Shown here: positions 26,366 through 62,018 of the stretch, piece after piece
Layout of the letters: each line of letters opens with the position of its first letter
Numbering within the stretch: position 1 is the stretch's first letter
Assembly: GCA_016870195.1 (NCBI GenBank)
Contig: VGCC01000002.1
Span: forward strand, 575-64,574
Length of the DNA stretch: 64,000 nucleotides
Source: Actinomycetota bacterium
Lineage (GTDB): Bacteria > Actinomycetota > Actinomycetes > S36-B12
Reading direction: 5' to 3'
Made by a program: the position numbers and the translations under genes
The notes under the pieces: generated by a model
What the model was told of the DNA's origin: nothing
Seen by the model: only the letters and a program-made list of their open reading frames with translations
The model's database searches: none

Positions 26366-26368
26366 GTC

Positions 26369-34618: not shown

Positions 34619-35647
34619 TTAGCTTCTGGCCAGGATGGCGTCCTGCACGGCGGGGATGATCTTCTCGCCATAGGCGGCCATTGTGTGGTCCTTGTCGTCG
34701 TGCTGGAGGTACACCGCGAATTGATCGACCCCGAGGGCCTTGAGTTCCTCGAGGCGACGAATGTGATCCTCGGGGGTGCCAATGATGCAGAAGCGGTCCA
34801 CGATCTCGTCCGGTACGAAGTCCGTGTGTGTGTTTCCCACGCGGCCGTGCTCGTTGTAGTCGTATCCCTGACGACCCTTGATGTAGTCGGTGAGTGCCTT
34901 GGGGACGGCTCCAGAGTCACCATACCGCTCCACGATGTCGGCTACGTGGTTTCCGACCATGCCGCCGAACCAGCGCAACTGGTCGCGGGCGTGGGCGTGA
35001 TGCTCGGGAGAGCCGTCGCTGACGTACGCGGGAGCCGCCACGCAGATATACACGTCGTCGGGATTGCGCCCAGCCGCTGTAGCGGACTCGCGAACAGAAG
35101 CGATGGTCCACTCGGCGATGGAGGGATCAGCCAACTGAAGGATGAAGCCATCGCCCACCTCGCCAGCAAGTGCAAGGACCTTGGGACCGTAGGCGGCTAC
35201 CCATACGTCGGCTCGACTATCCAGCGCCCAAGGCAAGCGGAGGCTGTTCCCCTTGTACTCGATGGCATCACCGTTCACCAGACCCTTGATGTCGATTACT
35301 GCCTGGCGCAACTCGGCGACCGATACCGGCTTGCCGTTGGTGACGCGCACAGCGGAGTCGCCACGGCCGATGCCGATGACCGTGCGGTTTCCGTACATCT
35401 CATTCAGCGTCGCGAAGACGGAGGCAGTCACCGTGATGTCGCGCGTTGCCGGGTTGGTGACCATAGGCCCGACGATCACCTTGCGTGTCTCATCGAGGAT
35501 CTTGCTATAGATGACGTAGGGTTCCTCCCACAGGATGTGCGAGTCGAAGGTCCACACGTAGGTGAATCCATACGTCTCAGCGCGCTTGGCGAGGTCGATG
35601 ACTCGAGCGGCAGGGGGGGTGCATTGCATGACGACGCCAATTTCCAT
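34619..35647 (-). CDS. LLM-class F420-dependent oxidoreductase, TIGR03842 type
   Basis: WTFDSHILWEEP, GPMVTNP, GIGRGDSA, RWFGGMVGNH, VYLQHD; start ATG 35647; lies in a hydantoinase/nitrilase cluster. Confidence 0.88.
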   Translation of the reverse strand: MEIGVVMQCTPPAARVIDLAKRAETYGFTYVWTFDSHILWEEPYVIYSKILDETRKVIVGPMVTNPATRDITVTASVFATLNEMYGNRTVIGIGRGDSAVRVTNGKPVSVAELRQAVIDIKGLVNGDAIEYKGNSLRLPWALDSRADVWVAAYGPKVLALAGEVGDGFILQLADPSIAEWTIASVRESATAAGRNPDDVYICVAAPAYVSDGSPEHHAHARDQLRWFGGMVGNHVADIVERYGDSGAVPKALTDYIKGRQGYDYNEHGRVGNTHTDFVPDEIVDRFCIIGTPEDHIRRLEELKALGVDQFAVYLQHDDKDHTMAAYGEKIIPAVQDAILARS

Positions 35648-35675
35648 GAGGGCTCCTGTCTCGGGTAAGTGCTTG

Positions 35676-37163
35676 TCAACGCGTCCGCGGGAAACCAAGA
35701 TCGACCGACGACGTCGCCGGATCGGGCCACCGGGACGTGACCGTCTTAGTGCGGGTGTAGAAGTCGATACCTGCGGGTCCGTACATGTTGGTGTCGCCGA
35801 ACAGCGATGCCTTCCAACCGCCGAAGCTATAGTACGCCACGGGCACGGGTATCGGCACGTTGATGCCCACCATGCCGACCTGGATGTCAAACTGAAACTG
35901 TCGCGCCGCACCACCGTCGCGGGTGAAGATAGTGGTGCCGTTGCCGTACTGGTGGTCGTTGATCAGCTTCACGCCCTCCTCATAGGTTGCGACCCGGGTG
36001 ACCGAGAGGACCGGCCCGAAGATCTCGTCGTCGTAGGCCTTCATGCCGGGCTTAACGTTGTCGATGAGAGAAGGAGCCAGGAAGAACCCTTCCTTCGGAA
36101 GGTCGTTCTCACGCCCGTCCACGACCACGGTCGCGCCCTCACCCGGTGCGCCAGCGACGTACGACGCGACCTTGTCGCGGTGCTCGCGGGTGATGAGCGG
36201 CCCCATCTCGGCATCGGGGTCGGTGCCCGGTCCGACCTTCAACTTGGGCAGCCGTGCGGCGATGGCGTCGACGAGCTTGTCGCCGACGTCGCCGACCGCC
36301 ACGACCACCGAGGTCGCCATGCAGCGCTCGCCGGCGGAGCCATATCCCGCACTTACCGCCGCATTGGCGGCCATGTCAATGTCCGCGTCCGGTAGGACGA
36401 TCATGTGGTTCTTGGCGCCACCAAGCGCCTGGACGCGCTTGCCGTTCGCGGTGCCCGTCGAGTAGATGTACTGGGCGATTGGCGTAGATCCGACGAAGGA
36501 GACCGCCGAGATATCCGAGTGATCCAGGATTCGGTCCACGGCGACCTTATCACCGTGGACCACGTTGAAGACACCATCGGGCAACCCGGCCCGCTTCAGC
36601 AATTGGGCCATGAGCAAGGACACCGAAGGATCCTTCTCACTCGGCTTGAGGATGAAGGTGTTACCGGTGGCGATCGCATTCGCGAACATCCACATCGGCA
36701 CCATGGCCGGGAAGTTGAAGGGCGTGATGCCCGCGACTACGCCGAGGGGCTGACGGATTGAGTAGACGTCGACACCCGTGGATGCCTGCTCGGAGAAGTT
36801 TCCCTTCATCAACTGCGGAATTCCGCAGGCGAATTCGATGTTCTCGATTCCGCGCGCCAACTCACCGGCTGCATCCGAGGGGACCTTGCCATGCTCGGAG
36901 GACACCAGGTCAGCGATCTCGTCGCGGTGCGAGACCACGAGCTCGTGGAATCGGAACATGATCTCTGCACGGCGGGACAAAGAAGCGGACCGCCATATGG
37001 CGAAGGCCTCCTTAGCCGTCGCTACCGCGGTGTCGATGTCGGCAACTGTGGCGAAGCCCACCTGAGCCTGCTGTTCGCCGGTAGCCGGATTGAACACCGA
37101 TCCGAAGTACCCGGAGGTCGCCGGGACTTCCTTGCCGCCGATCCAGTGATTGATGGTGCGCAC
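35676..37163 (-). CDS. mmsA: CoA-acylating (methyl)malonate-semialdehyde dehydrogenase
   Basis: PFNFPAMVP, KPSEKDP, SFVGST, GGAKNH, GSAGERCMA, VPIPVP. Confidence 0.93.
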   Translation of the reverse strand: MRTINHWIGGKEVPATSGYFGSVFNPATGEQQAQVGFATVADIDTAVATAKEAFAIWRSASLSRRAEIMFRFHELVVSHRDEIADLVSSEHGKVPSDAAGELARGIENIEFACGIPQLMKGNFSEQASTGVDVYSIRQPLGVVAGITPFNFPAMVPMWMFANAIATGNTFILKPSEKDPSVSLLMAQLLKRAGLPDGVFNVVHGDKVAVDRILDHSDISAVSFVGSTPIAQYIYSTGTANGKRVQALGGAKNHMIVLPDADIDMAANAAVSAGYGSAGERCMATSVVVAVGDVGDKLVDAIAARLPKLKVGPGTDPDAEMGPLITREHRDKVASYVAGAPGEGATVVVDGRENDLPKEGFFLAPSLIDNVKPGMKAYDDEIFGPVLSVTRVATYEEGVKLINDHQYGNGTTIFTRDGGAARQFQFDIQVGMVGINVPIPVPVAYYSFGGWKASLFGDTNMYGPAGIDFYTRTKTVTSRWPDPATSSVDLGFPRTR

Positions 37164-37233: not shown

Positions 37234-38652
37234 CTAGATCAGGTACTGGTTCATACCCCGTTTGAGGTACTTGCCGTGACCGTCGGAGCCGATGTACTTA
37301 TTGTCGTCCACGATCACCGTGCCGCGGGAGATCACCGTGTCGACGTGCCCGTCGATGTTGAATCCCTCCCAAGCCGAATGATCCATGTTCATGTGATGGG
37401 TCTTCTCGTGGCCGATCTCCGTGCGCCCGTCCGGGTTGTAGATTACGATGTCGGCGTCCGAGCCGGGGGCGATGACGCCTTTGCGTGGGTAGAGGCCGAA
37501 CATACGAGCAGGTGTGGTCGCGGTGATCTCCACCCAACGCGCCAGGGTGATCTGACCGTCCACCACGCCTTGGTAGATCAGGTCCATGCGGTGCTCGACC
37601 GATCCGATGCCGTTGGGGATCTTGGAGAAGTCGCCGACACCCAACTCCTTTTGCTCCTTCATGCAGAAGGGGCAGTGATCCGTAGAGACGATCGACAGGT
37701 CGTTGGTGCGCAGATAGCGCCACAACTCCTGCTGGTGACGCTCGGCCTTGGAGCGCAGCGGCGTGGAGCAGACCCACTTGGCACCTTCGAAGCCGGGCTG
37801 GGACAGGTGCTCTTCCAGTGACAGGTAGAGGTATTGTGGACAGGTCTCTCCGAACACGTTCCACGCTTCGTCGCGCGCCTGCTGGACCACGTTCACCGCC
37901 TGCTTGGCGGACATGTGCACGATGTACAACGGCGTGCCTGTCATCTTCGCGAGCATTATCGCCCGGTTGGTGGCTTCCGCTTCGGTCTCCCAGGGGCGGG
38001 TGAGGCTGTGGTACCTCGGGTCCGTCTTACCCTCGGCTAGTGCCTGCTGCACTAGGACGTCGATCGCGATGCCGTTCTCGGCGTGCATCATGATCGTCGA
38101 ACCGTTCTTTGCGGCCGTTTGCATGGCGCGCAGGATCTGGCCGTCATCGCTGTAAAAGACCCCCGGGTAAGCCATGAACAACTTGAAGCTCGTGATTCCC
38201 TCATCGACGAGTTCGTCCATCGCCTTCAAGGAATCGTCGTCGACACCACCGATGATCTGGTGAAAGCTGTAGTCGATCGCGCACTGTCCGTCGGCTTTGG
38301 CGTGCCACGCTGCGAGGGCATCTTGAACGCGCTCACCGAACTTTTGCACGGCGAAGTCGATGATCGTGGTCGTCCCGCCCCAGGCTGCTGCGCGGGTACC
38401 CGTCGCGAAGGTGTCCGAGGCGAAGGTGCCACCGAACGGCAACTCCATATGCGTGTGGACGTCCACTCCACCGGGGATGACGTACTTACCCCGGGCATCG
38501 AAGACCTTATCGACAGTGGCCTCCAGGTTCGCACCGAGTGAGGTATCTCCAGGAGCGATGACGGCAGCGATCGTCTCACCGTCAATGAGGACGTCGGCCT
38601 GGATCGCTCCAGTCGACAAGACGACGCTGCCGTTCTTGATGAGGATGGTCAT
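37234..38652 (-). CDS. hydA: Dihydropyrimidinase (hydantoinase)
   Basis: PGGVDVHTH, GGTTTIIDF, SFKLFMAY, HAENG, STDHCPF; start ATG 38652. Confidence 0.94.
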   Translation of the reverse strand: MTILIKNGSVVLSTGAIQADVLIDGETIAAVIAPGDTSLGANLEATVDKVFDARGKYVIPGGVDVHTHMELPFGGTFASDTFATGTRAAAWGGTTTIIDFAVQKFGERVQDALAAWHAKADGQCAIDYSFHQIIGGVDDDSLKAMDELVDEGITSFKLFMAYPGVFYSDDGQILRAMQTAAKNGSTIMMHAENGIAIDVLVQQALAEGKTDPRYHSLTRPWETEAEATNRAIMLAKMTGTPLYIVHMSAKQAVNVVQQARDEAWNVFGETCPQYLYLSLEEHLSQPGFEGAKWVCSTPLRSKAERHQQELWRYLRTNDLSIVSTDHCPFCMKEQKELGVGDFSKIPNGIGSVEHRMDLIYQGVVDGQITLARWVEITATTPARMFGLYPRKGVIAPGSDADIVIYNPDGRTEIGHEKTHHMNMDHSAWEGFNIDGHVDTVISRGTVIVDDNKYIGSDGHGKYLKRGMNQYLI

Positions 38653-38687: not shown

Positions 38688-39524
38688 CTATGGTCGAACC
38701 AGATCGTCGTACGCATCCGGACGACGATCCCGGTAGAAGGCCCACCGATTACGTACCGTGGTTATGAGGTCCATGTCCAGGTCCCGAACGATGAGTTCGG
38801 ACTTGTAGGGGTCGCCCTTGTTGCCCACGTAGTTTCCCTCGGGGTCGACGAAGTAGGACTGTCCATAAAAGTCGTCGTCGCCTAGGGGCTCGATCCCCAC
38901 GCGATTGATGGCGCCCACGTAGTACTCGTTGGCGACGGCTGCCGCAGGCTGCTCGATGCTCCACAGGTATTGGGACAGTCCACGCGAGGTGGCCGACGGA
39001 TTGAACACGATCTGGGCACCGTTGAGTCCGAGCGCACGCCAACCCTCGGGGAAATGGCGGTCGTAGCAGATGTACACGCCAATTTTACCGACCGCGGTAT
39101 CGAAGACGGGGTAGCCACCGTTGCCAGGGCGGAAATAGAACTTTTCCCAGAAGCCGTTGACGTGCGGGATGTGCTGCTTGCGGTACTTGCCTAGGTAGGA
39201 GCCATCGGCGTCGAGTATGGCCGCGGCGTTGTAGAGGAACCCTGGCCCGGCGTCCTCATACACCGGCAGTACCACCACCATCTGTAGTTCTCGCGCGAGA
39301 GCCTGGAAGCGCTCAACGATCGGGCCGGGTACCGCTTCGGCGAACTCGTAGAACTTGGTGTCTTGCACCTGGCAGAAGTACGGGCCGTAAAACAGTTCTT
39401 GGAAGCAGATCACCTGAGCACCTTGCTTGGCCGCCTCGCGAGCGAACTCCTCGTGCTTTACGATCATGGACTCCTTGTCACCGGTCCAGTCGGTTTGAAC
39501 CAGGGCGGCTTTAACGACGCTCAT
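38688..39524 (-). CDS. Nitrilase-family beta-ureidopropionase
   Basis: CFQELFYGPYFC, YRKQHIP, FWEKFYF, ICYDRHFPEGWR (E-K-C triad); next to hydA. Confidence 0.9.
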   Translation of the reverse strand: MSVVKAALVQTDWTGDKESMIVKHEEFAREAAKQGAQVICFQELFYGPYFCQVQDTKFYEFAEAVPGPIVERFQALARELQMVVVLPVYEDAGPGFLYNAAAILDADGSYLGKYRKQHIPHVNGFWEKFYFRPGNGGYPVFDTAVGKIGVYICYDRHFPEGWRALGLNGAQIVFNPSATSRGLSQYLWSIEQPAAAVANEYYVGAINRVGIEPLGDDDFYGQSYFVDPEGNYVGNKGDPYKSELIVRDLDMDLITTVRNRWAFYRDRRPDAYDDLVRP

Positions 39525-39569
39525 GGATCCTCCAGGTCGAGGTGGCTGCTGATGATTCGTTGACCACCA

Positions 39570-41098: not shown

Positions 41099-41127
41099 CG
41101 TGCAGGTCCGTGATGTGGGATGGTCCC

Positions 41128-42486
41128 ATGGGTGACCTGGCCCTGCACGGTGCATCCGCATTGGTGACCGATTGGCGCACTCCACCTTTGATGGACGGGT
41201 GGCTGCTTGTGTCCGATGGCAAGGTTCAGGCCAGCGGCTCGGGTACGCCTCCGCATGCCTCGGAATCGATCGATGCCTCCTCCATGATCGTGGTGCCAGG
41301 TTTCGTTGCTGCTCATCACCACCTGTATCAAGGCGTCGCACGTGGCGTCCACGTCGAAGGCGGGTTGATCGATTGGCTTGACGTCCATTACCGAGCCTGG
41401 TCGAAGATGACGGCCGATGACGTCCGGGTCGGTGCCCTGGTGTCTGCTTCGTTGGCCGCGTTGGGTGGATGCACCACCGTCGCAGGTTTCGAGTACGTCC
41501 ATCCGCCCTCGGAGGATTTCGTCACCCCGGTGGTCGAATCCGTCGATCGAGTCGGTATCCGTCTGCTCTACGTCCGCGGGTGTGCACCGCGATTGGAGGG
41601 ACCGCTTGGCGAGCGCTTGGCAAACCAGGGAGTCGACATCACTCGCTTGGTCGAGCCGGAGTCCGTCGCATTATCGCGAACCGCGGAGGTGCTCGCTGGG
41701 CCCACGCATGAGCGATTGCGTTGGGCGGCCGGCCCGACCACACCGGTAGTCGACGACGACGGCGATTTCCATCGTGCGTTGGATGAGATCGCTCAAGGGG
41801 CAGGTACTTGGCTGCATACGCATTTCCATCCGATTCCGGGTACGCGCGTGTCCGGGGAGTCCGCCTTTGACATGGCTGCGCGGGTGGGTTTGGTTCGCAA
41901 GGGGAATTGGCTCGCACATGGGTCGCGCCTGACTTCGGAAGATGTCGCGCGCTTCGGTCACAACGGCATGGGTGTCGTGCACAACCCCAGTTGCAGTGCT
42001 CTCTTGGGTTATCCGACGCCTCCACTAGCGCAGTGGATGGCGGGCAACGACCGCATCGCCATTAGTGTCGATGGAGCAGCGTCCAATGATCGCGGCGGCA
42101 TGCTCGCCGAAACCCAATTGGCCTGGCAGATGCAACGAGCTCGCTTCGGCGCAGAAGTGGAGGCGGCGTGTGGACCGGAGGCGATCCTCGATGCAGCCAC
42201 CCGGGGGGCAGCGCGGGCCATCAACTGGGAGGGATTGGGAACCCTCACCGTGGGAAGCACGGCGGACATCGCCGCCTGGAGTCTGGCCGACATGGGTTTC
42301 GCCGGGAGTCCCGCGTCGGCGCAAACCACCCCCCAGTGGCTCGTGTTCCGGTGCTTTGCGGGGGCGAATGCGTCCCATGTCTTGGTGGGCGGTGACCCGG
42401 TGGTGGTCGGGGGGCGACTGGTGCACGTGGAGACACAGCAGTTGATTCAACAGTCGCGCCATACGGCAACTCGGTTGTATGGATGA
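41128..42486 (+). CDS. Metal-dependent amidohydrolase (8-oxoguanine deaminase/AtzB-like), atypical
   Basis: PGFVAAHHHLYQ, GCTT, WLAHG, VDGAASND; the usual HxxE reads HFHP. Start is 41110 or 41128. Confidence 0.8.
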   Translation: MGDLALHGASALVTDWRTPPLMDGWLLVSDGKVQASGSGTPPHASESIDASSMIVVPGFVAAHHHLYQGVARGVHVEGGLIDWLDVHYRAWSKMTADDVRVGALVSASLAALGGCTTVAGFEYVHPPSEDFVTPVVESVDRVGIRLLYVRGCAPRLEGPLGERLANQGVDITRLVEPESVALSRTAEVLAGPTHERLRWAAGPTTPVVDDDGDFHRALDEIAQGAGTWLHTHFHPIPGTRVSGESAFDMAARVGLVRKGNWLAHGSRLTSEDVARFGHNGMGVVHNPSCSALLGYPTPPLAQWMAGNDRIAISVDGAASNDRGGMLAETQLAWQMQRARFGAEVEAACGPEAILDAATRGAARAINWEGLGTLTVGSTADIAAWSLADMGFAGSPASAQTTPQWLVFRCFAGANASHVLVGGDPVVVGGRLVHVETQQLIQQSRHTATRLYG

Positions 42487-43177
42487 AAATGTCGAGCGAA
42501 AGGTGACAACAGTTATGGATCCTTATTCCGGGCGCAGACTCTTCGGTCGACCGCTGGTCGTGGAACCGCAAGCGACGGCGGTCCTCGTGATCGACATGCT
42601 CAACGACTTCTGTGAGCGGGAGGGCGTTCTTGGAAACCCCCAAGCGCTCGCCCTATGCGACAACCAGAATCGGATTTTGGCGGCCGTGCGCGATAAGGCC
42701 GGAACGGTCGTCTTCGTCAACGAGCAGCATCGGACGAATCTGGCTCCAACGCGTGCGTTCGCTCAGCAAATGACCCACACCTACGAAAACACGTGGGGCG
42801 CCGAGGTAGTCGAGCCGCTGACCGCCGGCGAAGGGGATCTCTCGGTCATCAAGCGCCGGTATTCCGGATTCTTCCAGTCGGATCTAGATTTGGTCCTCAG
42901 AGACAGGGTCGTTCGCACGGTCGTGCTACTGGGTGTTCTGACGAACATCTGCGTTCGGGCAACGGCGCACGACGCCTTTTTCCTAGGGTACAACGTCGTC
43001 GTGCCGGAGGACGGCGTCGGCGCGATGTCCCAGATGGAGCAGCTCGCGAGCCTGTACGACATCGCCACCCATTTCGGATGGGTCTGCGACACGTCGGCGG
43101 TATGTGCAGCGCTGACGGACGGCCAACCGATCGAGAACTCCGATGTGACGCTCGGCTCACGCTTGACCAGCGTCTAA
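42479..43177 (+). CDS. Isochorismatase-family cysteine hydrolase (RutB/carbamoyl amidase-like)
   Basis: VIDMLNDF, KRRYSGF, GVLTNICV (D-K-C triad). Confidence 0.88.
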   Translation: MDENVERKVTTVMDPYSGRRLFGRPLVVEPQATAVLVIDMLNDFCEREGVLGNPQALALCDNQNRILAAVRDKAGTVVFVNEQHRTNLAPTRAFAQQMTHTYENTWGAEVVEPLTAGEGDLSVIKRRYSGFFQSDLDLVLRDRVVRTVVLLGVLTNICVRATAHDAFFLGYNVVVPEDGVGAMSQMEQLASLYDIATHFGWVCDTSAVCAALTDGQPIENSDVTLGSRLTSV

Positions 43178-48938: not shown

Positions 48939-48948
48939 TGAGTTGTTG

Positions 48949-53984: not shown

Positions 53985-54923
53985 GTGCGTTTCGCGATCC
54001 TGCTGGAGAGTCAAGAGGGCTTGACGTGGCCCCAACTGTCCAATGCCGCCGAGCACGGGGAACGTCTGGGCCTCGATGGCGTGTACGTATCGGACCACTA
54101 CGCACCCGTCGACATCACTAACCCGCGCGATGTCCTGCCCGCATGGATGGGGATCGCTGTCCTCGCGGCCACGACCTCCACGATCCGCATCGGACCGCTC
54201 GTCAGCCCGATCACCTTCCGCCACCCAGTGGATTTGGCACAGCAGGCGATCGCCCTCGATGTCCTGACGGGTGCGCGGATCGATCTCGGCATGGGCGCAG
54301 GCTGGCATGAGGACGAACACGTGCGCTTTGGTCGGGCATTCCCGGTGGCCGGAGAACGAGTATCCAGGCTAGAAGAGAGCCTCGAGGTGGTAACTCGACT
54401 GTGGCGGCAAACTGACGTCACCTGGGAAGGTCGGTTCTTTACGCTGCGCGAAGCAACGGTGTTGCCGCGCCCGGTGACAGTCGATCCACCCATCATCTTG
54501 GGCGGATCCGGACCACGGATGCTGGGTCTCGCCGCTCGATACGCGAAGGAATGGAACTGCTTCTACAAGAGCGTGGACGAAGTGGTCCAGATGCAGTCGG
54601 TGATGGACGATGCCTGTCGCTCCATCGGCCGCGATCCGGCGGCGTTAGCCCGCTCGCTCATGACACCCTTGGTGATCGGACGCGGAGAAGAGGACTTGTC
54701 GCGTTGCATCGACCGGCACCGAGAGGTATTTCCCGGTCTACCGGCGACTCCCGGGGAGTGGCGTGCGTCGGGTTTCCTCGGCGGGACCCTCGAAGAGGTT
54801 CGTCGTCAGGTAGGGCGTTTGACCGCCGCGGGAGTTGAGCGCCTCATCTTCGAATTCAACGATGTGGAGGACGTTTGTGCCCTTGAACTCGTCGCTGACG
54901 AACTATCGAACCTCGATACCTGA
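53985..54923 (+). CDS. LLM-class oxidoreductase, probably F420-dependent
   Basis: ESQEG, SDH, LVSPITFRHP, LGMGAGW...EH, IILGGSG. Confidence 0.85.
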   Translation: MRFAILLESQEGLTWPQLSNAAEHGERLGLDGVYVSDHYAPVDITNPRDVLPAWMGIAVLAATTSTIRIGPLVSPITFRHPVDLAQQAIALDVLTGARIDLGMGAGWHEDEHVRFGRAFPVAGERVSRLEESLEVVTRLWRQTDVTWEGRFFTLREATVLPRPVTVDPPIILGGSGPRMLGLAARYAKEWNCFYKSVDEVVQMQSVMDDACRSIGRDPAALARSLMTPLVIGRGEEDLSRCIDRHREVFPGLPATPGEWRASGFLGGTLEEVRRQVGRLTAAGVERLIFEFNDVEDVCALELVADELSNLDT

Positions 54924-56258
54924 CCTCTGGAGAAGCGTGCGACTGGCGTGTTGAGCTCTCAAGAGAGTGGCGTGCAATGGGACTCCGGTGGGCTGCCGTG
55001 CCGTCAACACAGCCTCACCCTGAACGAAGACGTCCGTAACGTTCTCCTGGGTGGCGCTGAAAACCAGGAGGGAATAGGGATCACTGAAGGACACGCTGTT
55101 CGGCAGCCAGGGGTTCAGAACGAACAGGTCGGCTAGCTTGCCGATTTCGATGGACCCGAGGTCATCCCCCCACCCGAGGGACGTGGCACCACCCCTGGTC
55201 GCCATCCAGACAATGTCACGGGCCATGATTATGGCGGGATCCCGATGCTCCAGTTTGTGGAGTAGCCCGGTCACCTTCATCACCTGCAGCATGTCCTGAT
55301 TGTTGTTGCTAGCTGGCCCGTCAGATCCGAGGCTCACGGTGATGCCGTGTTCGCGCATGTCCACGAGTGGTGCCAGACCTTCACCGAGGTAGGCGTTACT
55401 GATCGGATTGTGCGAGATCGAGCAACCGGACCGTGCGATCGACTCCAGATCCATGGCGCTTGGGTGGGTGCAATGCACGAGAAGGGTCCGCGGCCCCAAA
55501 AAACCGATGGACTCCTCGTACGCGATGTCGGATGACCCGAAAAGCTCACGTGCCGCGTCGAGCGTGGATGGGGTCGTTGCGTGGATTGTCACTCCAGAAT
55601 CGAACTCGCGGGCCAGCTCGCTTGCTGCAACCAGAGACTTCGGAGAAGTGCTGAATATCGTGTAGGGAGCAAACCAGACACGGACACGATCGACGTCGGT
55701 ACGATGGAATCTCTCAGCAAGACTCCGGCACGCTGCGATTTCATCGGCCGATGATTGGATTATGTCGGCGTGCACGGATCCGGCATCGATGATTCCTCTT
55801 GCCAAGATGGTTCGGACGCCAACCTCGCGCATGCCTGCGATCGTGGCCTCCGCCATGCCGGGCTGCGGGTGGGGGTAGTTGTAATCCACGACCGTGGTGG
55901 TCCCGCTCATGATCGCCTCGAGGGCCGTTACCTGACCGGCAACACGTGCATCGTCCACGGAGAGGTGGCCGACCACCCTGTCTATGGCCTGAGAGAACCA
56001 ATCCCAGACGCCCAATCCCTCGCCGATCCCGCGAGTTAGGGTCTGGAAGGAATGGGTATGGGTGTTAATCAGACCGGGAAAGACGAAAAATCCTCGAACG
56101 TCGTACACTGGTGCTGCGCCTGAAACGAAGTCGGCCATGGAGCCGATGGCGTCAATACGCCCATGTCGGATGCGAATGAATCCATCGGGAATCCTTGTCC
56201 AGCGATCATCAAGTGTCACCACATTGGCGTTGACGATGTCGCAATTACACGACGTCAT
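54903..56258 (-). CDS. Metal-dependent amidohydrolase (MTA/SAH deaminase-like), atypical
   Basis: PGLINTHTHSFQ, GTTT, LVHC, HNPISN, GSDGPASNNNQD; the usual HxxE reads HATT. ATGA overlap with psuG. Confidence 0.83.
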   Translation of the reverse strand: MTSCNCDIVNANVVTLDDRWTRIPDGFIRIRHGRIDAIGSMADFVSGAAPVYDVRGFFVFPGLINTHTHSFQTLTRGIGEGLGVWDWFSQAIDRVVGHLSVDDARVAGQVTALEAIMSGTTTVVDYNYPHPQPGMAEATIAGMREVGVRTILARGIIDAGSVHADIIQSSADEIAACRSLAERFHRTDVDRVRVWFAPYTIFSTSPKSLVAASELAREFDSGVTIHATTPSTLDAARELFGSSDIAYEESIGFLGPRTLLVHCTHPSAMDLESIARSGCSISHNPISNAYLGEGLAPLVDMREHGITVSLGSDGPASNNNQDMLQVMKVTGLLHKLEHRDPAIIMARDIVWMATRGGATSLGWGDDLGSIEIGKLADLFVLNPWLPNSVSFSDPYSLLVFSATQENVTDVFVQGEAVLTARQPTGVPLHATLLRAQHASRTLLQRSGIEVR

Positions 56259-57160
56259 GTCAATGAGTGAAGACTGCGCGCAAGGCGTGCGCCGACGAGA
56301 GCATTGTTCTTGATTAACGCCACATTTGCGTCCAAGCTCGCGCCGCCAGTGATCTCGAAGATCGCGCTGAGGAGGAATGGCGTGAGCGGCTTACCTGAGA
56401 TTCCCTCCGCCGTGGCGCGTTGGAGAGCCACGTCGATCGCCCGACGGGTCTCAGCTTCTGGCAGGGCGTCGGCTTCGGGCAATGGCACCCCCAGCAGCAT
56501 CCCTGCTGCGCCACGGAGGTCTTGGTCTGCCAGGAATGCTCGGGCGACCTCGTTGACGGACTCGGCCTTCCACTCAACTTTGACGCCACTGTTGCGGCTG
56601 TAGAACCACGGGAACGTGCTCTCCATCCACGAGGCCACCGGGCAGCCGATCGTCTCCAGGTACTCCAGGGTCGCGCGCACGTCCATGAAGGCTTTGGTGC
56701 CCGAGGTAACCGTGATGCAGGGGTACTTCTGAATAGCGAGTAAATCGGCGGAGATGTCCAAGGTCTCACCGAAGTCCGGGGCCACCCCGCCGATACCCCC
56801 GGTCACATGCACACGGATACCGGCCAGGCTGGCAATGAACAACGTCGCACCGACCGTTGTGGCACCACTGCGACCGGAGATGCTCGCGCAAGCAAGATCG
56901 CGCTCTTGCGCCTTGACGACATCGTCGGCATTCGCTAGGAAGGTCAACTCGTCTGGAGACAGTCCGCAGACAATGTCTCCTCTAATGAGGCCTATTGACG
57001 CCGGAATCGCACCTTCGCTGCGAATGATCTCTTCAACCGCCAGTGCGGTCTCGATATTCGTGGGGCGGGGCATCCCGTGGGCGACGATGGTCGACTCGAG
57101 AGCGACGAGCGGAGTGCCATCCTGAAGAGCTCGCTGTACTTCCGCACTGACACGCATCAT
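56255..57160 (-). CDS. psuG: Pseudouridine-5'-phosphate glycosidase
   Basis: VALESTIVAHGMP, GATTV, TGGIGGV, DISADL, GTK, TLEYLET, LTPFLL. Confidence 0.92.
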   Translation of the reverse strand: MMRVSAEVQRALQDGTPLVALESTIVAHGMPRPTNIETALAVEEIIRSEGAIPASIGLIRGDIVCGLSPDELTFLANADDVVKAQERDLACASISGRSGATTVGATLFIASLAGIRVHVTGGIGGVAPDFGETLDISADLLAIQKYPCITVTSGTKAFMDVRATLEYLETIGCPVASWMESTFPWFYSRNSGVKVEWKAESVNEVARAFLADQDLRGAAGMLLGVPLPEADALPEAETRRAIDVALQRATAEGISGKPLTPFLLSAIFEITGGASLDANVALIKNNALVGARLARSLHSLT

Positions 57161-57244: not shown

Positions 57245-58195
57245 TCACTTAAATTGTGTTGAATATTTGTCACGAAGTTTCGCGGTGATTGCAGCGCATG
57301 CGGAATGTCCACCGACAGATGCGATTGTCATTGCTGCGGCTTCAGATCCGCACGTGACTGCGGTCCTCAGGTCAGCTCCTGACAGATGCGCGGCGATGAA
57401 TCCAGCGGCTAATGCGTCCCCTGCGCCGGTCGTATCGGCAACCAGCGCGGCACTCGTTTCGATGGGTTCGATTGTGGAATTGGTGATCATGAAAGCGCCT
57501 GCGACGCCGAGTTTCATCACGACCACGGGAATGTTTAGGCTGCAAAGAGCAGTCGCGGCGGCGCGGGTGTCGGTCGCACCGGTAAAGGCGCATGCCTCGT
57601 ACTCATTGGGAAAAAAAGCGGTGGCGAGTTCCAGCAATGCACCGAGTTCGGGGGAGGGTCGCTCCATCAGCTGGGGACTGGGATCGAATGAGATCGGGAT
57701 GCCGCGTTCGCTGGCGAGCCGTGCAGCGTCCATCACCAGATGCGTGGTCGACTCGCGCTGGAGCCAGAAGCCGGAGATGTGCAACCAATCGACGTCCGGG
57801 ACGGTATCGAGGATTTGACTCGAGAACTCCGAGAATGCCGCCGCCGACGGTGTGGTTTCTGAGCCGCGGTAGGACAGGAAGCGCCGGTCTCCGTCCACGC
57901 CGATTGCCACCACGCACAGCGAATTCGGGCCAGACCTGCGCCGAACCAGGGACATGTCTAGCCCGTGAGAGGTGAGATCTTCGACAAGTAGATCGGTGAA
58001 CAGGTCGGAGCCGACCTCGGTCGCGAGCGTTGCCTTCAGGCCGAGGGCCGAGGCAACGGCCGCGAAATTCGCTGCAGACCCACCCGTGCCGACGGCACTC
58101 GCCGATGCCGCGACGTCCGGGGACGATTCCCAGGCATCTGCAACCTGCAGGCTCACCTCGACCATGGTGTCGCCTATTGCAAGGACGGTCGGCAT
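57245..58195 (-). CDS. PfkB family kinase, probable pseudouridine kinase
   Basis: GGSAAN, SFDP, PNEYEA, DTTGAGD; directly upstream of psuG. Confidence 0.85.
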   Translation of the reverse strand: MPTVLAIGDTMVEVSLQVADAWESSPDVAASASAVGTGGSAANFAAVASALGLKATLATEVGSDLFTDLLVEDLTSHGLDMSLVRRRSGPNSLCVVAIGVDGDRRFLSYRGSETTPSAAAFSEFSSQILDTVPDVDWLHISGFWLQRESTTHLVMDAARLASERGIPISFDPSPQLMERPSPELGALLELATAFFPNEYEACAFTGATDTRAAATALCSLNIPVVVMKLGVAGAFMITNSTIEPIETSAALVADTTGAGDALAAGFIAAHLSGADLRTAVTCGSEAAAMTIASVGGHSACAAITAKLRDKYSTQFK

Positions 58196-58364
58196 GTCAA
58201 CAGCATATGGGTGTACGGATCACATGAAATGTGTTGATCAATATTTCGTGTCATCGACGATGAGTCATAGCCTATGCTGTGCAAGTCGTTACTAGCGTAG
58301 GGGCGCGTGCTCCTCGTGTCGGGTACCGGTGAGGAACGACGTGAGCACCTGTGAGAGTCGGACG

Positions 58365-59207
58365 ATGATCAGCGTGGTGACTGGATTCGCTACAGCATTC
58401 TTTTTCGCCATCGGCATGATCGCCGCCGCTCGGGCCAGTAGAGGTGCGCACGCCACGCAGGTCATTGCATTGTCCGCGCTCATCTCGTCTCTGTTCGTCG
58501 TTCCGTGGGCACTGTCCGACGGTGTTCCCACCCTCACGACCGGCCAGACTGGATTGATGCTGGTCTCAGGGATCGGCAGTATCTTCGGATTCCTGTGCGT
58601 CTACACGGCATTAAAATACGGCAAGGTGGGGCTCGTCGCTCCGATCGTCGCCACGGAGGGCGGAATCGCGGCCCTCATCTCCTCGATCCTGGGAAGAAGC
58701 GTAGATCCGATCATCGCCTTCGTGCTCTTGATCATCGTTCTGGGCATCGTCATCGGCGCCCGATCACACGATCCCGATCCGTTTCCGGGCGAGAAGCCGG
58801 TGCACGCCGCCTTGTTCGCCGTCGCGGGCTCTCTGCTCTTCGCGATGGGACTAGTAGCCGTCGGGCTTCTGAGCGGCGACGTGATGCTGTCGTGGGTACT
58901 GCTCCCGGCTCGACTCGTGGGCGTCGCCATTCTGACGATTCCGTTGTTGCTGCTGGGTCGCCTGCGGGTTCCGCGACGGATTCTCGCCTGGGTAGTGCTC
59001 TTGGCAACGGTGGACGTGATCGCAATCAGCACGTATACCATCGGCGCGGCGAGTGATCTGCCGGTGACAGCCGTTCTCGCTTCGCAAATGGCACCACTCG
59101 CGGCCGTTCTTGCTTTCGTGCTTTTCAAGGAGAGGCTGGGGCGCGGGCAGATTGTCGGCCTCATGTTGATGATGGCTGGGATGACCGTTCTTGGAGTTCT
59201 GCAGTGA
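58365..59207 (+). CDS. EamA/DMT family transporter
   Basis: About 10 hydrophobic helices, GKVGLVAPI, LFKERL; start 58329 or 58365. Confidence 0.87.
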   Translation: MISVVTGFATAFFFAIGMIAAARASRGAHATQVIALSALISSLFVVPWALSDGVPTLTTGQTGLMLVSGIGSIFGFLCVYTALKYGKVGLVAPIVATEGGIAALISSILGRSVDPIIAFVLLIIVLGIVIGARSHDPDPFPGEKPVHAALFAVAGSLLFAMGLVAVGLLSGDVMLSWVLLPARLVGVAILTIPLLLLGRLRVPRRILAWVVLLATVDVIAISTYTIGAASDLPVTAVLASQMAPLAAVLAFVLFKERLGRGQIVGLMLMMAGMTVLGVLQ

Positions 59208-59267
59208 ATGATCTATGCGGTTCCCCGCACGTGGCACCGTCAGCCCACGAAGTGATAGGAGTCAGCT

Positions 59268-60128
59268 GTGGATGAAAGGCCAACGACGCCACCGTTGTTC
59301 GATGTGGACGGTGCCTCAGTGATGACGCGCATCACCGAGCAAGACGTGGGTCGCTATGTAATTTTGTCAGTGCATGATCCGCTGGGCTACGAGGACGACG
59401 TCGCCGCGGTCATCGCCACGTATCTCGACGACGCCTATCTGGTGGCTGACACACACATGTTCGTGACGTATACGGGACACTACAAGGGAACCAAAGTCAC
59501 GGTTTGTTCGACAGGCAGCGGTGCGCCGGAGACGGAGATCGCACTCGTCGACTTCTTCAGATTCTCCGAGGCGGATACCTTCATTCGTGCTGGAACATCG
59601 GGCACGTACCTGGAGCACGTCGCGGTCGGTGACGTTGTAATCGCTGCCGCAGCCGTACGAGACGAGGGCACCTCACAGGCTTACATCGTTCCGACCTATC
59701 CGGCGTTTGCCAATTACGAAGTGGTGCTGGCGATGCTCCAGGCGGCTGACGATCTTGGTGTCGGTCACCACCTGGGCGTGACTCGGTCGACCGATTCTTG
59801 TCAAGCGGGACAGGGGAGGCCCGTCCTCGGTTACCACCAGGCGGACAGCAAAGCCCAGCCCGAGTACTGGAAGCAGGCCGGAATCTTGAATTTCGAACGG
59901 GAGACTTCGATCATCTACGTGCTCAGCAGTCTCTTCGGGTTCCGAGCCTGCGCGGTCAACGCAGTGGTGAATAGCACTCCACGGGCGAACCTGGAGGTCG
60001 GAGCGGGATCCGATGAGGTGTTTCGAACGGTGCTCGAGGGCATCCACAACCTTTCGACCTGGGATCGAATCAAGGAGGACTCGGGCAAGGCCTACCTCTT
60101 GCCGTCCATGATGGCGATCAAGGAGTAG
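59268..60128 (+). CDS. Uridine phosphorylase-like NP-I family enzyme, divergent
   Basis: VTVCSTGSG, FIRAGTSG, AVRDEGTS, GQGR, NFERE. Confidence 0.82.
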   Translation: MDERPTTPPLFDVDGASVMTRITEQDVGRYVILSVHDPLGYEDDVAAVIATYLDDAYLVADTHMFVTYTGHYKGTKVTVCSTGSGAPETEIALVDFFRFSEADTFIRAGTSGTYLEHVAVGDVVIAAAAVRDEGTSQAYIVPTYPAFANYEVVLAMLQAADDLGVGHHLGVTRSTDSCQAGQGRPVLGYHQADSKAQPEYWKQAGILNFERETSIIYVLSSLFGFRACAVNAVVNSTPRANLEVGAGSDEVFRTVLEGIHNLSTWDRIKEDSGKAYLLPSMMAIKE

Positions 60129-60134
60129 GCGCCG

Positions 60135-60905
60135 GTGGATACCCAGCAGGACTTCTCCCTTGCCGGCAAGGTCGCCTTCGTCACGGGGGCTAACAGGGGA
60201 ATCGGTCGGGCTCTCGCCATCGGGTTGGCTACCGCGGGAGCTGACATCGCGGTGCTGCACCGTGGGGACGTCGAGGCGACGATGGGCGAGTTGTCCAGTC
60301 TGCCCGTTCGAAGCCGGGCGTACGAGTGTGACCTGGCCAACGCCGACGACGAGGAGCTGAGGGGAGTCGTGGACTCCGTTGCCAAGGATTTCTCCGGGCT
60401 GGATGTCCTTGTCAACAATGCTGGTGCGATTCATGTTTCTCCAGCAGTCAGTTACCCCATCGCTGACTGGGATGAGATCCTCCGTATTAACGTGACGAGT
60501 GCGTTCCTCCTCTCCCGTGCCGTGGGCGCGTCGTTCATCGACAGGGGGATTGCCGGCAGAATCATCAATGTCGCGTCGTTGCTCTCGTTCCTGGGGGGTC
60601 ACTCGGTCGTCGCGTACACTGCCAGCAAGAGTGCACTAGCCGGTGTCACGCGTACCTTGGCAGTGGAGTGGGGCGCCCTCGGGATTCGGGTCAACGCCAT
60701 CGCTCCGGGATACATCGTTACCGACAACACGCGTCGACTCCTGGAAAACAAGAACCTCAAGGCGATGATCGACGCGCGAATTCCCGCAGGAAGATGGGGA
60801 CAACCGGCCGACATAGTCGGACCTGCCGTATTCCTCGCATCCGACGCATCTCGATATGTGAATGGCGTGGTGCTTCCCGTCGATGGCGGAATCCTTGCGA
60901 ACTGA
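60135..60905 (+). CDS. SDR oxidoreductase, KduD-like
   Basis: TGANRGIG, ASLLSFLGG, YTASK, IAPGYIVTDNT, RIPAGRWG. Confidence 0.88.
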   Translation: MDTQQDFSLAGKVAFVTGANRGIGRALAIGLATAGADIAVLHRGDVEATMGELSSLPVRSRAYECDLANADDEELRGVVDSVAKDFSGLDVLVNNAGAIHVSPAVSYPIADWDEILRINVTSAFLLSRAVGASFIDRGIAGRIINVASLLSFLGGHSVVAYTASKSALAGVTRTLAVEWGALGIRVNAIAPGYIVTDNTRRLLENKNLKAMIDARIPAGRWGQPADIVGPAVFLASDASRYVNGVVLPVDGGILAN

Positions 60906-60911
60906 GATGGC

Positions 60912-62018
60912 GTGATGGTCGCTGAGCTTGGGAGGGCTGCCGTTCCTGTCGGGGTGATTGGGGTTGGAAACATCAGCGACACGTACCTGGAGAACCTTCG
61001 ATCAAGTTATTCCCCCTTTGTCGAGGTTATCGGCTGTGCCGACGTGATCCCCGAGCGAGCGCGAGCGGCTGCGACGAGGTGGGCGCTGCCCAGGACCTAC
61101 GAATCGGTGGACGACCTGTTGGCCGATGAGCAGATTCGTGTGGTTTTGGTCCTGACGACCCCTGCCAGTCACTTCGAAGTCTGCTCGGCTGCGGTGTCCG
61201 CTGGCAAACATGTGTTCGTCGAGAAACCGATCAGTGTCAGCGTCGATCAGGCGTCGGCGCTGGTCGAACATGCAGCGCAGGTAGGTGTCTCAATCGCTGT
61301 TGCCCCGGATACGTGCCTTGGGACTGCGCTGCAGTTGGCGCTCCAGGTGGTCGAAGATGGTCGCATTGGTGAACCGATTGCCGCCAGCGCCAACATGTTG
61401 TGCCATGGTCATGAGAAATGGCATCCGAATCCGGCGTTCTTCTACGAGCCGGGCGCGGGACCGCTGATGGATATGGGCCCCTATTACTTGTCCGCCTTAC
61501 TGGGGCTCATGGGGTCCGTCGAATCGGTCCAGGCTTCGTCGCAGGCGTCCTTCGGCCAACGTGAAGTATCAAGCGAGCCCTTGAAAGGCACCTGGATCGA
61601 CGTGCACGTGCCAACGCACGTCGCTTCGACCATGCGATTCGAGCGCGGCGGAATCGCCACCATGGTCACCAGTTTCGATGTCTGGGCTTCCCAGGCACCG
61701 CACCTGGAGATTTATGGATCCTCAGGAACTCTCGTGCTGCCGAATCCAAATTGGTACGACGGGCAAGTGCTCTTGTGGCAGGTTGCCGGACAAGAGTGGG
61801 TGTCGCTGTCGCCACCGGTCTCTGCGAACATCGACCGACGTGGTCTGGGTCTCGTTGACTTCGTCGAGGCGATCGCCGCGGGCGCGCAACCACGACTCGA
61901 TGCGTCTCTCGGTTTGCACATTCTCGACATCATGGAGTCGATCGGTGTCAGCGCAAAAACTGATTGCTTAGTACCCGTGAGCAGTCGATTAAGTGGGCCA
62001 CCTCTTCTGCAAGCATGA
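60912..62018 (+). CDS. Gfo/Idh/MocA family oxidoreductase
   Basis: GVGNIS, EKP, WHPNPAFFY, DMGPYY. Confidence 0.9.
   Translation: MMVAELGRAAVPVGVIGVGNISDTYLENLRSSYSPFVEVIGCADVIPERARAAATRWALPRTYESVDDLLADEQIRVVLVLTTPASHFEVCSAAVSAGKHVFVEKPISVSVDQASALVEHAAQVGVSIAVAPDTCLGTALQLALQVVEDGRIGEPIAASANMLCHGHEKWHPNPAFFYEPGAGPLMDMGPYYLSALLGLMGSVESVQASSQASFGQREVSSEPLKGTWIDVHVPTHVASTMRFERGGIATMVTSFDVWASQAPHLEIYGSSGTLVLPNPNWYDGQVLLWQVAGQEWVSLSPPVSANIDRRGLGLVDFVEAIAAGAQPRLDASLGLHILDIMESIGVSAKTDCLVPVSSRLSGPPLLQA

Follow-up and report, generated by a model that had tools for sequence, protein, structure and literature searches.

The window examined here is a 64,000-nucleotide stretch of high-GC DNA from contig C2 of an Actinomycetota genome (G000; 2.13 Mb, 87 contigs, 99% complete). 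Its positions 34619-62018 hold 27 genes, among them a relative of the fungal uracil-5-carboxylate decarboxylase (IDCase), here called the IDCase-like gene or IDC. The original prediction had described this interval as a single island of about 25 adjacent genes for stripping and recycling modified pyrimidines. The gene number was close and every gene family it named was found where it had been placed, but the interval merges two units of different history and ends about 2 kb before the right end of the true island. One unit is a reductive pyrimidine module native to the genus. The other is an acquired block with a conserved operon core, which we tentatively propose converts imported modified pyrimidines to uracil.

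The gene map was made from long open reading frames (ORFs) at 30-64 kb of the window by Pfam and NCBIfam scans. The Pfam scans covered 30 ORFs, and four start codons were moved to fit family models and neighbouring stops. In some high-GC loci, ORFs were re-picked by codon-position GC. Genes that came in addition to those originally named were two F420-type luciferase-like oxidoreductases (LLM1 and LLM2), a MocR regulator, two cog0402 amidohydrolases (AmidoA and AmidoB), an isochorismatase, a PTE-family hydrolase, an EamA transporter, and a GFO/IDH/MocA oxidoreductase (GFO).

Reading along the window, LLM1, MmsA, dihydropyrimidinase, and CN-hydrolase lie on the minus strand, followed by MocR, AmidoA, and isochorismatase on the plus strand and by PTE, a short-chain dehydrogenase (SDR1), and an aldehyde dehydrogenase (ALDH) on the minus strand. 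A long plus-strand run comes next: IDC, a solute-binding protein (SBP), ATPase, permease, FGE1, FGE2, FCY1, TenA, SDR2, and LLM2. AmidoB, psuG, and a PfkB kinase are on the minus strand; EamA, a uridine-phosphorylase-like gene (UP), SDR3, and GFO are on the plus strand; and a cytochrome P450 is on the minus strand. The nearest public relatives of the IDCase-like gene are in metagenome-assembled genomes (MAGs) from lake water, some labelled 'Candidatus Nanopelagicales', and near-identical DNA is present in lake-water metagenome runs; none of the runs found to contain window 46400-55000 is an RNA run.

An acquired block beside a native module

The genes and repeats that define the two units are as follows.

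30762-32174, minus strand: class-III aminotransferase (Pfam Aminotran_3; NF005102 815 bits, cut-off 574), native
34619-35647, minus strand: LLM1, F420-type luciferase-like oxidoreductase (TIGR03842 565 bits, cut-off 295; Mer-like in the PDB), native
35676-37163, minus strand: MmsA, CoA-acylating (methyl)malonate-semialdehyde dehydrogenase (TIGR01722 715 bits, cut-off 448), native
37234-38652, minus strand: dihydropyrimidinase (TIGR02033 561 bits, cut-off 393), native
38688-39524, minus strand: CN-hydrolase (Pfam CN_hydrolase 228 bits), native
39136-39528: left copy of a direct repeat of about 390 bp, at the 5' end of the CN-hydrolase gene (blastn within contig C2)
39692-41098, plus strand: MocR-type regulator with a GntR helix-turn-helix and an aminotransferase fold (Pfam GntR and Aminotran_1_2), first gene of the block
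62585-63964, minus strand: cytochrome P450 (Pfam p450), last gene of the block
64068-64454: right copy of the direct repeat, immediately after the P450 gene and past the window end (blastn within contig C2)

We compared the window DNA with three genomes of the same genus (G401, G403, and G404) and two of the same family, and also aligned the congener contigs to G000. The genes from LLM1 to CN-hydrolase are a reductive pyrimidine module native to the genus, present in all three same-genus genomes. The congeners match window 24001-34209 at 76-83% nucleotide identity, the range also seen for the aminotransferase region, and match the stretch from LLM1 to CN-hydrolase at about 78%. At the protein level, MmsA is 88% identical to the copy in G404, and dihydropyrimidinase and CN-hydrolase share 86% and 92-95% of their residues with the congener proteins.

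Beyond CN-hydrolase and a MocR gene, the congener sequence runs directly into positions 64637-70476 of contig C2 (77-83% identity), and synteny is thus picked up again at C2 64637, which is window 64063. Between window 44001 and 64000, all matches in the three congeners are 135 bp or shorter, and the P450 region is unmatched. The inserted block is about 24.5 kb long (window ~39.5-64.07 kb), holds about 24 genes from MocR (39692) to just past P450, and has a GC fraction of 0.604 compared with 0.638 and 0.644 in its flanks. Because the congeners carry the module at a conserved site without the block, the hydantoinase, ureidopropionase, and MmsA part of the originally proposed island is native, and only the remainder is an accessory, acquired island.

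The two repeat copies are 74% identical over 394 bp. The left copy is 81-83% and the right copy 78-79% identical to the congener CN-hydrolase gene. These comparisons identify the block as a horizontally acquired genomic island, brought in by recombination within the CN-hydrolase gene. Contigs from three of four lake metagenome runs bridge the right junction (X10 record 4, X13 record 20, and X15 record 25; none flagged as a possible source), and the junction is therefore not a binning artefact. No integrase or tRNA turned up in the Pfam scans of long ORFs, and no further search aimed at either was made.

The distribution of the IDCase-like gene is patchy. Of 24 other genomes in the family, two carry it, and neither is one of the five congeners in this set; all 16 genomes sampled from the order's other families lack it. 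A search of the phylum at E<=1e-30 found it in 28 of 401 genomes, counting G000, with no other copy above 36% identity; the unpublished genomes G001, G018, and G239 enter only through this and one later tally, and none of their loci was analysed.

The block's MocR shares 60% amino-acid identity with the congeners' MocR. An orthologue of the native gene lies past the island at C2 ~65058-66484 (window ~64484-65910), split over three reading frames, with the N-terminal part 71% and the C-terminal part 86% identical to the congener protein. Either the gene is decaying, with the island's MocR in its place as regulator, or the split is a fault of the assembly.

Conservation of the island core

The core of the island comprises the IDC operon and the three genes that face it.

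43174-44109, minus strand: PTE-family hydrolase, lactonase/esterase type (Pfam PTE 181 bits)
44102-44866, minus strand: SDR1, short-chain dehydrogenase (Pfam adh_short_C2)
44863-46374, minus strand: ALDH (Pfam Aldedh 539 bits; no NCBIfam equivalog at cut-off)
46523-46530, plus strand: TGAACATT box, lying upstream of the IDCase-like gene at a distance of about 40 nt
46567-47616, plus strand: IDCase-like decarboxylase, Amidohydro_2 (Pfam PF04909; PDB 4hjw)
47724-48938, plus strand: NMT1/THI5-family solute-binding lipoprotein (Pfam NMT1 127 bits; LVAAC lipobox in the translation)
49036-49836, plus strand: ABC ATPase (Pfam ABC_tran)
49833-50651, plus strand: ABC permease (Pfam BPD_transp_1)
50648-51379, plus strand: FGE1, with the fold of formylglycine-generating enzyme (FGE; Pfam FGE-sulfatase; closest PDB entry ToxD, 7spq)
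51376-52065, plus strand: FGE2, FGE-fold paralogue of FGE1 at 42% identity (Pfam FGE-sulfatase)
52043-52513, plus strand: FCY1-type cytosine deaminase (best PDB match yeast cytosine deaminase, E 9e-32)
52510-53199, plus strand: TenA, thiaminase-II family (TIGR04306 135.8 bits, a narrow pass of the cut-off of 130)
53199-53984, plus strand: SDR2, short-chain dehydrogenase (Pfam adh_short_C2 215 bits)
53985-54923, plus strand: LLM2, F420-type luciferase-like oxidoreductase (TIGR03560 221 bits, just under the cut-off of 231)

We surveyed IDC loci with an alignment of 18 IDCase-like proteins, which yielded 80 loci from one-per-species genomes, and scored all window proteins against them. Nine loci are related (IDC at 69-82% identity) and 71 are more distant. 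The short loci from the phylum-wide IDC search (L001-L030) were left out of the later comparisons. The related loci (L031-L037, L081, and L095) all belong to lake or uncultured Actinomycetota, two of them being the family members G412 and G420.

From IDC to LLM2 (46567-54923) the genes form a tightly packed run on one strand, and from the ATPase gene onwards they abut or overlap by 1-23 bp. The gene order from AmidoA to psuG is kept in the nine related loci as far as the contigs reach, with 53-89% amino-acid identity: AmidoA, isochorismatase, PTE, SDR1, and ALDH; then IDC, SBP, ATPase, permease, FGE1, FGE2, (FCY1), TenA, SDR2, and LLM2; then AmidoB and psuG. The grouping of these genes is not a matter of chance. 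The FGE pair is present in all seven related loci that reach its position, and the ALDH-SDR1-PTE genes face the IDC operon across a spacer of 160-360 bp in all nine.

Two short motifs were seen by eye in this spacer. The TGAACATT box occurs in the window and in all nine related loci (doubled in L033, L081, and L034), and a CTATAGTC box occurs in nine of the ten ALDH-IDC spacers (not in L037). The two boxes are likely the promoter and operator of the IDC operon. We dropped TGAACATT as evidence for an island-wide regulon: it occurs once in the window with 0.9 expected by chance, and six times with one mismatch with 6.8 expected.

Which genes can be separated is seen at the variable edges of the loci. 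L032 and L033 resemble the window in having dihydropyrimidinase, CN-hydrolase, and MocR next to the core. A gene for aminobutyraldehyde dehydrogenase directly abuts AmidoA in L034, L037, and L095, and L036 has other DNA there. L036 also lacks TenA, SDR2, and LLM2, and its PTE gene is placed elsewhere. The homologues of UP, SDR3, and GFO in G420 are on a different contig from the core. As far as their contigs extend, the nine related loci contain no counterpart of the P450.

The IDCase-like and FCY1-like proteins retain pyrimidine-reading residues

The IDCase-like protein matches fungal uracil-5-carboxylate decarboxylase (4hjw) at E 1.7e-55 compared with 1e-31 for ACMSD. Alignment with 4hjw and 4hk5 places its HxH, HPH, and GTDHPF motifs in register. 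The metal ligands of IDCase (His12, His14, His195, and Asp323) have equivalents H12, H14, H184, and D300 that are invariant in the 18-sequence alignment. According to the excerpted text of PMC6305744, IDCase Arg68 forms hydrogen bonds to N1 and the C2 carbonyl, Asn98 does so to N3-H and a carbonyl, and LigW and gamma-RSD lack counterparts of both. The equivalents in the island protein, R56 and N86, are invariant in the 18 homologues, and His251, Arg262, Asp323, Phe222, and Phe326 of IDCase are also retained. The prokaryotic family counts 499 proteins at E<=1e-20 among 8000 candidates scored, and a relative is encoded in 565 genome stretches; annotation of the family stops at 'amidohydrolase' or 'ACMSD'.

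In yeast cytosine deaminase, zinc is bound by His62, Cys91, and Cys94, the catalytic residue is Glu64, the ligand is contacted by Asn51, Gly63, and Asp155, and Phe114 and Trp152 form the gate (PMC11000218). All nine residues are identical in the FCY1-like protein when aligned with 2o3k/1ysb. The IDCase-like and FCY1-like enzymes thus appear to be built for a 2-oxo pyrimidine ring, and the earlier assignment of the central enzymes to pyrimidines agrees with the invariant Arg68 and Asn98 and the nine FCY1 residues. No bacterial IDCase pathway or catabolic locus for 5-hydroxymethyluracil (5hmU) was found in the literature searched (subscription journals and supplements lay outside its scope), including the excerpted text of PMC4787775.

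Relatives of IDC and the FGE pair occur with nucleoside genes

Of the 71 more distant IDC loci, 13 contain a PNP_UDP_1 gene that shares 33-38% identity with the island UP. It lies directly beside IDC in 11 of them, and 12 of the 13 carry genes for an energy-coupling factor (ECF) transporter. At other IDC loci we saw genes for Bmp/PnrA-type SBPs, hydantoinase-like amidohydrolases, CN-hydrolases, isochorismatases, and GntR regulators. A metagenome scan with an FGE2 alignment gave 80 loci, of which 79 hold only distant FGE-like genes (34-44% identity); L147 alone was informative. This contig encodes an FGE1/FGE2 pair at 58% and 54% identity, adjoining a PucR regulator and an operon for an ECF transporter, two PNP_UDP_1 proteins, an MFS transporter, and an IU-nucleoside hydrolase. 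Judged from these neighbours, the independent gene context of IDC and of the FGE pair in other phyla points to nucleosides. In the Chloroflexota loci L062 and L087, an FGE-like gene lies directly upstream of IDC, but the neighbours (TPR, unknown, weak glycosyltransferase, UvrA-like, and sugar ABC genes) are uninformative.

About ten of the 80 metagenome loci contain tandem FGE-like pairs (L164, L171, L173, L176, L186, L189, L190, L202, L209, and L217), and such pairing may be a more widespread arrangement of FGE-fold genes that is as yet uncharacterised. L050 (12494-17727), on the chromosome of an Acidimicrobiia MAG, has an operon of ECF, phosphorylase, and IDC genes followed by two genes of defence type, for an SNF2-family helicase and a BrxC/D-like ATPase.

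The FGE-fold pair and the other genes of the block

The FGE-fold proteins match PF03781 at 145 and 165 bits, and the best solved match of FGE1 is ToxD of toxoflavin biosynthesis (7spq, E 3.5e-26; true FGEs reach about 1e-18). FGE1 has an RCSYRC motif at what we take to be the position of the Cys pair essential for FGE. The first Cys is Cys, Ala, or Gly among orthologues, and FGE2 has a single Cys there. No sulfatase client was found among the 30 ORFs scanned with Pfam. An identity as formylglycine-generating enzymes is not supported, since the Cys pair is not conserved and no sulfatase occurs among the scanned ORFs, and the pair, first labelled FGE, is better called ToxD-like. The FGE2 family is rare: a search of 400 other Actinomycetota genomes gave nothing at E<=1e-35. 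A homologue of FGE2 with 52% identity (P0184) is encoded by a cultured organism, Microcella sp. The activity of ToxD itself is only proposed: in the excerpted text of a 2026 review (PMC13755311), it may convert 1-ribityl-dedimethyltoxoflavin to 1,6-dedimethyltoxoflavin, which amounts to removal of an N-linked ribityl group from a pyrimidine-fused ring.

The remaining genes of the block are listed below.

41110-42486, plus strand: AmidoA, amidohydrolase of the 8-oxoguanine deaminase/AtzB/TrzN group (Pfam Amidohydro_1; PDB 7ww2 E 2.7e-41; all NCBIfam models under cut-off)
42479-43177, plus strand: isochorismatase-family hydrolase, amidase type (Pfam Isochorismatase 143 bits)
54903-56258, minus strand: AmidoB, amidohydrolase of the AtzA/MTA-SAH deaminase/8-oxoguanine deaminase group (Pfam Amidohydro_1 202 bits; PDB 4v1x E 1.7e-55)
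56255-57160, minus strand: psuG (Pfam Indigoidine_A 343 bits)
57245-58195, minus strand: PfkB kinase, psuK-like (Pfam PfkB 162 bits)
58329-62018, plus strand: EamA transporter, UP, KduD-like SDR3, and GFO/IDH/MocA oxidoreductase (Pfam/NCBIfam scans)
59268-60128, plus strand: UP within this group (PDB uridine phosphorylase E 1.4e-33; NCBIfam 176 bits, cut-off 280)

From its relatives, AmidoA is a candidate hydrolase of exocyclic groups on an N-heterocycle, and ALDH is a candidate for oxidation of a 5-formyl to a 5-carboxy group. LLM2 finds its best PDB matches in two F420-dependent enzymes, hydroxymycolate dehydrogenase (E 9e-22) and alcohol dehydrogenase (E 2e-14), which makes it a candidate alcohol dehydrogenase. 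Two assignments to the Rut pathway were rejected: the isochorismatase scores 105.7 bits against the RutB model TIGR03614 (cut-off 378), and LLM2 scores 43 bits against the RutA model TIGR03612 (cut-off 498) and matches RutA in the PDB at only E 2e-12.

The psuG and PfkB genes are on the same strand with an 84-bp gap, and AmidoB is the last gene of this psuK-psuG operon. A second psuG lies outside the window (C2:152429-153295). It scores 386 bits compared with 342 for the island copy, and for this reason the island psuK/psuG/AmidoB operon may act on a different C-nucleoside.

A proposed pathway from modified pyrimidines to uracil

We propose that the island imports modified pyrimidine bases or nucleosides and converts C5-substituted cytosines and uracils to plain uracil. 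We hold this reading tentatively, with a little less than even confidence. Cytosine-type deamination by the FCY1-like enzyme and 5-carboxyuracil-type decarboxylation by the IDCase-like enzyme are the two steps for which active-site sequences argue. Roles for TenA, for SDR2, LLM2, and ALDH, for the ToxD-like pair, and for psuK/psuG and UP are suggested by family chemistry and gene position. We infer all substrates, and the order of the steps; the originally named 5-hydroxymethylcytosine (5hmC), 5hmU, mnm5U, and phage bases are candidate substrates.

The base would be taken up by the ABC importer with its ThiY-like lipoprotein. The ToxD-like pair and TenA would then remove N-linked or C5-methylene-linked groups to leave a 5-hydroxymethyl group, with TenA swapping an amine-type leaving group on the C5 methylene for a hydroxyl and the ToxD-like pair removing the N-linked group. 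The cytosine series would be brought into the uracil series by the FCY1-type deaminase or, where this is absent, by one of the two cog0402 amidohydrolases. An SDR and/or LLM2, followed by ALDH, would oxidise 5-CH2OH to 5-CHO and 5-COOH, and the IDCase-like enzyme would release CO2 to give uracil. The psuK/psuG and UP-like enzymes would feed in uracil-type bases from pseudouridine-type (C-) nucleosides and from N-nucleosides.

The resulting uracil could be salvaged by Upp, which is encoded in the genome, or degraded by the neighbouring native module. There, uracil or thymine would be reduced, probably by LLM1; dihydropyrimidinase would open the ring, CN-hydrolase would remove the carbamoyl group, and transamination and oxidation by MmsA would follow.

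A more specific form of this proposal strikes us as unlikely, though worth setting out. It would be a bacterial 'de-modification' pathway on a mobile block, in which a ToxD-like FGE heterodimer and a repurposed TenA strip amine-linked C5 side chains (nm5, mnm5, and cmnm5 of transfer RNA (tRNA), or amino-alkylated phage thymines) to 5-hydroxymethyl, the heterodimer taking off N-alkyl groups. The carbon still left would be erased by dehydrogenases dependent on F420 and NAD and by a bacterial IDCase, with uracil as the product, the 5hmC and 5hmU of phage or dinoflagellate DNA would also be admitted, and the TIGR03842 protein LLM1 would be the missing uracil/thymine reductase of Actinomycetota.

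Several observations weigh against the conversion of modified pyrimidines to uracil as the island's function. The ring-stacking Phe327 of IDCase is Ser in the island protein and Ser or Ala in the family pattern, and the pocket differs. No methyl hydroxylase of the thymine-7-hydroxylase type is evident in the island, and thymine and 5-methylcytosine are left without a clear entry enzyme. TenA is present in four of the five related loci that reach its position and absent from the fifth. FCY1 is present in three of five, in one of these at a moved position, and absent from two. Because each is absent from some related loci, the pathway cannot depend on both. TenA passes the NCBIfam cut-off for thiaminase II, and the only characterised ligands of the TenA and SBP families that we know of are thiamine pyrimidines. 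PTE, isochorismatase, AmidoA, AmidoB, GFO, SDR3, and P450 have no assigned step.

The comparative data are also mixed. The expected co-occurrence of these genes was found in the related loci, but the full set of IDCase, FGE pair, TenA, and FCY1 is confined to one family-level lineage of lake Actinomycetota, and the shared order of the nine loci is partly inheritance, as the loci are close kin. Within 10 kb of IDC in the 71 more distant loci there is no TenA, FCY1, or NMT1 SBP, and an FGE-like gene is present in only two, both from Chloroflexota. The reductive module is next to the core in only three of seven informative loci, the window included.

Alternative explanations

The block may instead be a mosaic without a common funnel, in which separate operons for pseudouridine, for nucleosides or sugars, for import of an N-heterocycle, and for lactones or aldehydes travel together and adjoin the reductive module by accident. 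We regard this as somewhat unlikely. It would accommodate the UP, SDR3, and GFO homologues that G420 carries away from the core, the gene losses and the displaced PTE in L036, the low fraction of informative loci with an adjoining module, the TGAACATT box ahead of the IDC operon only with no sign of a common regulon, and the status of the island psuG as a second copy. It is at odds with the packing of at least ten genes from IDC to LLM2 as one transcription unit, and with the conserved spacer across which this unit faces ALDH-SDR1-PTE. IDC and the FGE pair are moreover each tied to nucleoside enzymes in unrelated lineages, and all nameable products converge on uracil.

Thiamine offers a second alternative. 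TenA matches Bacillus subtilis TenA at E 2e-23, and its PC, DxxY, and YE motifs, presumably catalytic, are aligned. The closest PDB matches of the SBP are 4nmy (E 4e-15) and, distantly, ThiY 3ix1 (E 4e-9). No ThiC or ThiE was found in the genome, which is 99% complete, and there is no strong match to ThiD in it (the best, to Phos_pyr_kin, is partial at 37 bits). The genome therefore cannot turn HMP (4-amino-5-hydroxymethyl-2-methylpyrimidine) into thiamine. An Rfam search of the whole window at gathering thresholds gave no matches, and thus no thiamine pyrophosphate (TPP) riboswitch or other RNA element. We ruled out a role of TenA in thiamine salvage on these grounds. A second gene of the TenA family lies elsewhere in the genome (C8:51232-51822, 75 bits).

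With salvage excluded, the sole remaining thiamine reading is breakdown or detoxification of thiamine pyrimidines: the aminomethyl compound AmMP, its formyl derivative FAMP, or HMP would be imported, hydrolysed by TenA, oxidised to the 5-carboxylic acid, deaminated, decarboxylated, and ring-opened. We think this improbable. The TenA score and presumed catalytic residues agree with it, as does the FAMP-binding ThiY being the nearest characterised relative of the SBP, and breakdown is conceivable in a host that cannot use HMP for synthesis. Older literature describes oxidation of HMP to the 5-carboxylic acid by soil bacteria. Against it stand the invariant IDCase Arg68 and the deaminase residues Asn51 and Asp155, as a 2-methyl ring has no C2 carbonyl to read, together with the missing TPP riboswitch in the window and the relatives of IDC and the FGE pair, which sit with nucleoside phosphorylases and hydrolases and not with thiamine genes. 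Thiamine-related compounds are trace nutrients and would give a poor return for about 20 genes.

Catabolism of another N-heterocycle, such as vitamin B6 or an s-triazine or pterin-type compound, is very improbable: MocR has the B6-salvage factor PtsJ as its best NCBIfam model, SDR1 (next to a PTE-family lactonase, in a block with an ALDH and a decarboxylase) matches SDR-type pyridoxal 4-dehydrogenase, AmidoA and AmidoB match triazine hydrolases, and the isochorismatase matches the biuret hydrolase BiuH, but the scores are far under the cut-offs (PtsJ 244 bits against 573, pyridoxal dehydrogenase 184.6 against 325, BiuH 69 against 370), the FCY1-like and IDCase-like proteins retain pyrimidine-specific residues, and MocR also adjoins the reductive module in island-free congeners and therefore gives no clue to the island substrate.

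Relation to known pathways

By sequence similarity, the closest known system to the proposed conversion of modified pyrimidines to uracil is the tail of fungal thymidine salvage (IDCase, with FCY1), and the likeness is at the last step. To our knowledge, only fungi erase the C5 carbon from a pyrimidine, by thymine-7-hydroxylase and IDCase, and this chemistry has been studied as a model of DNA demethylation. As in the salvage of Neurospora and Cordyceps, where thymine-7-hydroxylase is followed by IDCase, an Amidohydro_2 metal enzyme would carry out the end step, from 5-carboxyuracil to uracil. Two island proteins have fungal IDCase and yeast FCY1 as their closest solved relatives, with substrate-contact residues kept. 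The island differs in lacking an Fe/2-oxoglutarate thymine-7-hydroxylase, and oxidation would fall to SDR, F420-type LLM, and ALDH enzymes. It adds an ABC importer, TenA, the ToxD-like pair, the two cog0402 amidohydrolases, and psuK/psuG. The residue at Phe327 is Ser or Ala, the host is a bacterium, and the genes are on a mobile block.

Other systems are matched in part. Like the thiamine pyrimidine salvage of Bacillus (ThiXYZ, YlmB, and TenA), the island has an NMT1/ThiY-family SBP with an ABC system and a TenA with a Cys-containing motif, but the host lacks ThiC, ThiE, a strong ThiD, and a TPP riboswitch, and the neighbouring deaminase, dehydrogenases, and decarboxylase would destroy HMP. 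Like PsuK/PsuG of Escherichia coli (YeiC/YeiN), it pairs an Indigoidine_A-family glycosidase with a PfkB kinase, but its operon includes an AtzA/deaminase-like amidohydrolase and its psuG is the second, lower-scoring copy in the genome. Compared with ToxD, the FGE-fold genes are two tandem paralogues, their setting is catabolic, and other tox genes are absent. The literature searched contains no bacterial locus of this combination, as the original prediction had supposed.

If the proposal is true, the bacterial version would differ in its oxidation enzymes and bring an importer, a role for TenA that is independent of thiamine, and, for a ToxD-like FGE-fold pair, a first catabolic role. A further gain would be an account of how streamlined bacteria of lakes regain nitrogen and pyrimidine rings from modified bases in RNA and in the DNA of phages and algae.

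A candidate pyrimidine reductase in the native module

The native module shares with reductive pyrimidine catabolism (the PydA/dihydropyrimidine dehydrogenase (DPD) route) a dihydropyrimidinase and MmsA, both past curated cut-offs, a CN-hydrolase, and a class-III aminotransferase. It differs in having a TIGR03842 F420-type LLM in place of DPD/PydA, and it is native, outside the acquired block. The best NCBIfam model of the CN-hydrolase is N-carbamoylputrescine amidase (249 bits, under the cut-off of 410); it is a candidate beta-ureidopropionase. The aminotransferase is a candidate beta-alanine/beta-aminoisobutyrate transaminase of the route.

No canonical dihydropyrimidine dehydrogenase of the DPD/PydA type was found, and the whole genome has a single PF01180 (DHO_dh) match, on contig C7. 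Because of this, the reduction step would need the F420-type LLM, and LLM1 is a candidate uracil/thymine reductase replacing PydA. An F420 ligase is encoded in G000. No description of an F420-dependent pyrimidine reductase was found in the literature searched.

The TIGR03842 cut-off is passed in 60 of 301 Actinomycetota genomes; the unpublished genomes G088, G268, G018, G239, G174, G120, G226, G001, G148, G082, and G048 contribute only counts, and none of their loci was analysed. Locus L142, which holds only a MocR fragment and ABC genes, was counted as having no pathway neighbours. Of 30 loci examined in other Actinomycetota families, 10 (L115, L125, L131, L134, L136-L138, L140, L141, and L143) have an orthologue of dihydropyrimidinase, CN-hydrolase, or MmsA at 1.5 kb or less from the TIGR03842 gene. 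If LLM1 has the proposed activity, a TIGR03842 LLM beside dihydropyrimidinase would be a testable candidate for the missing first reductive enzyme in F420-using Actinomycetota.

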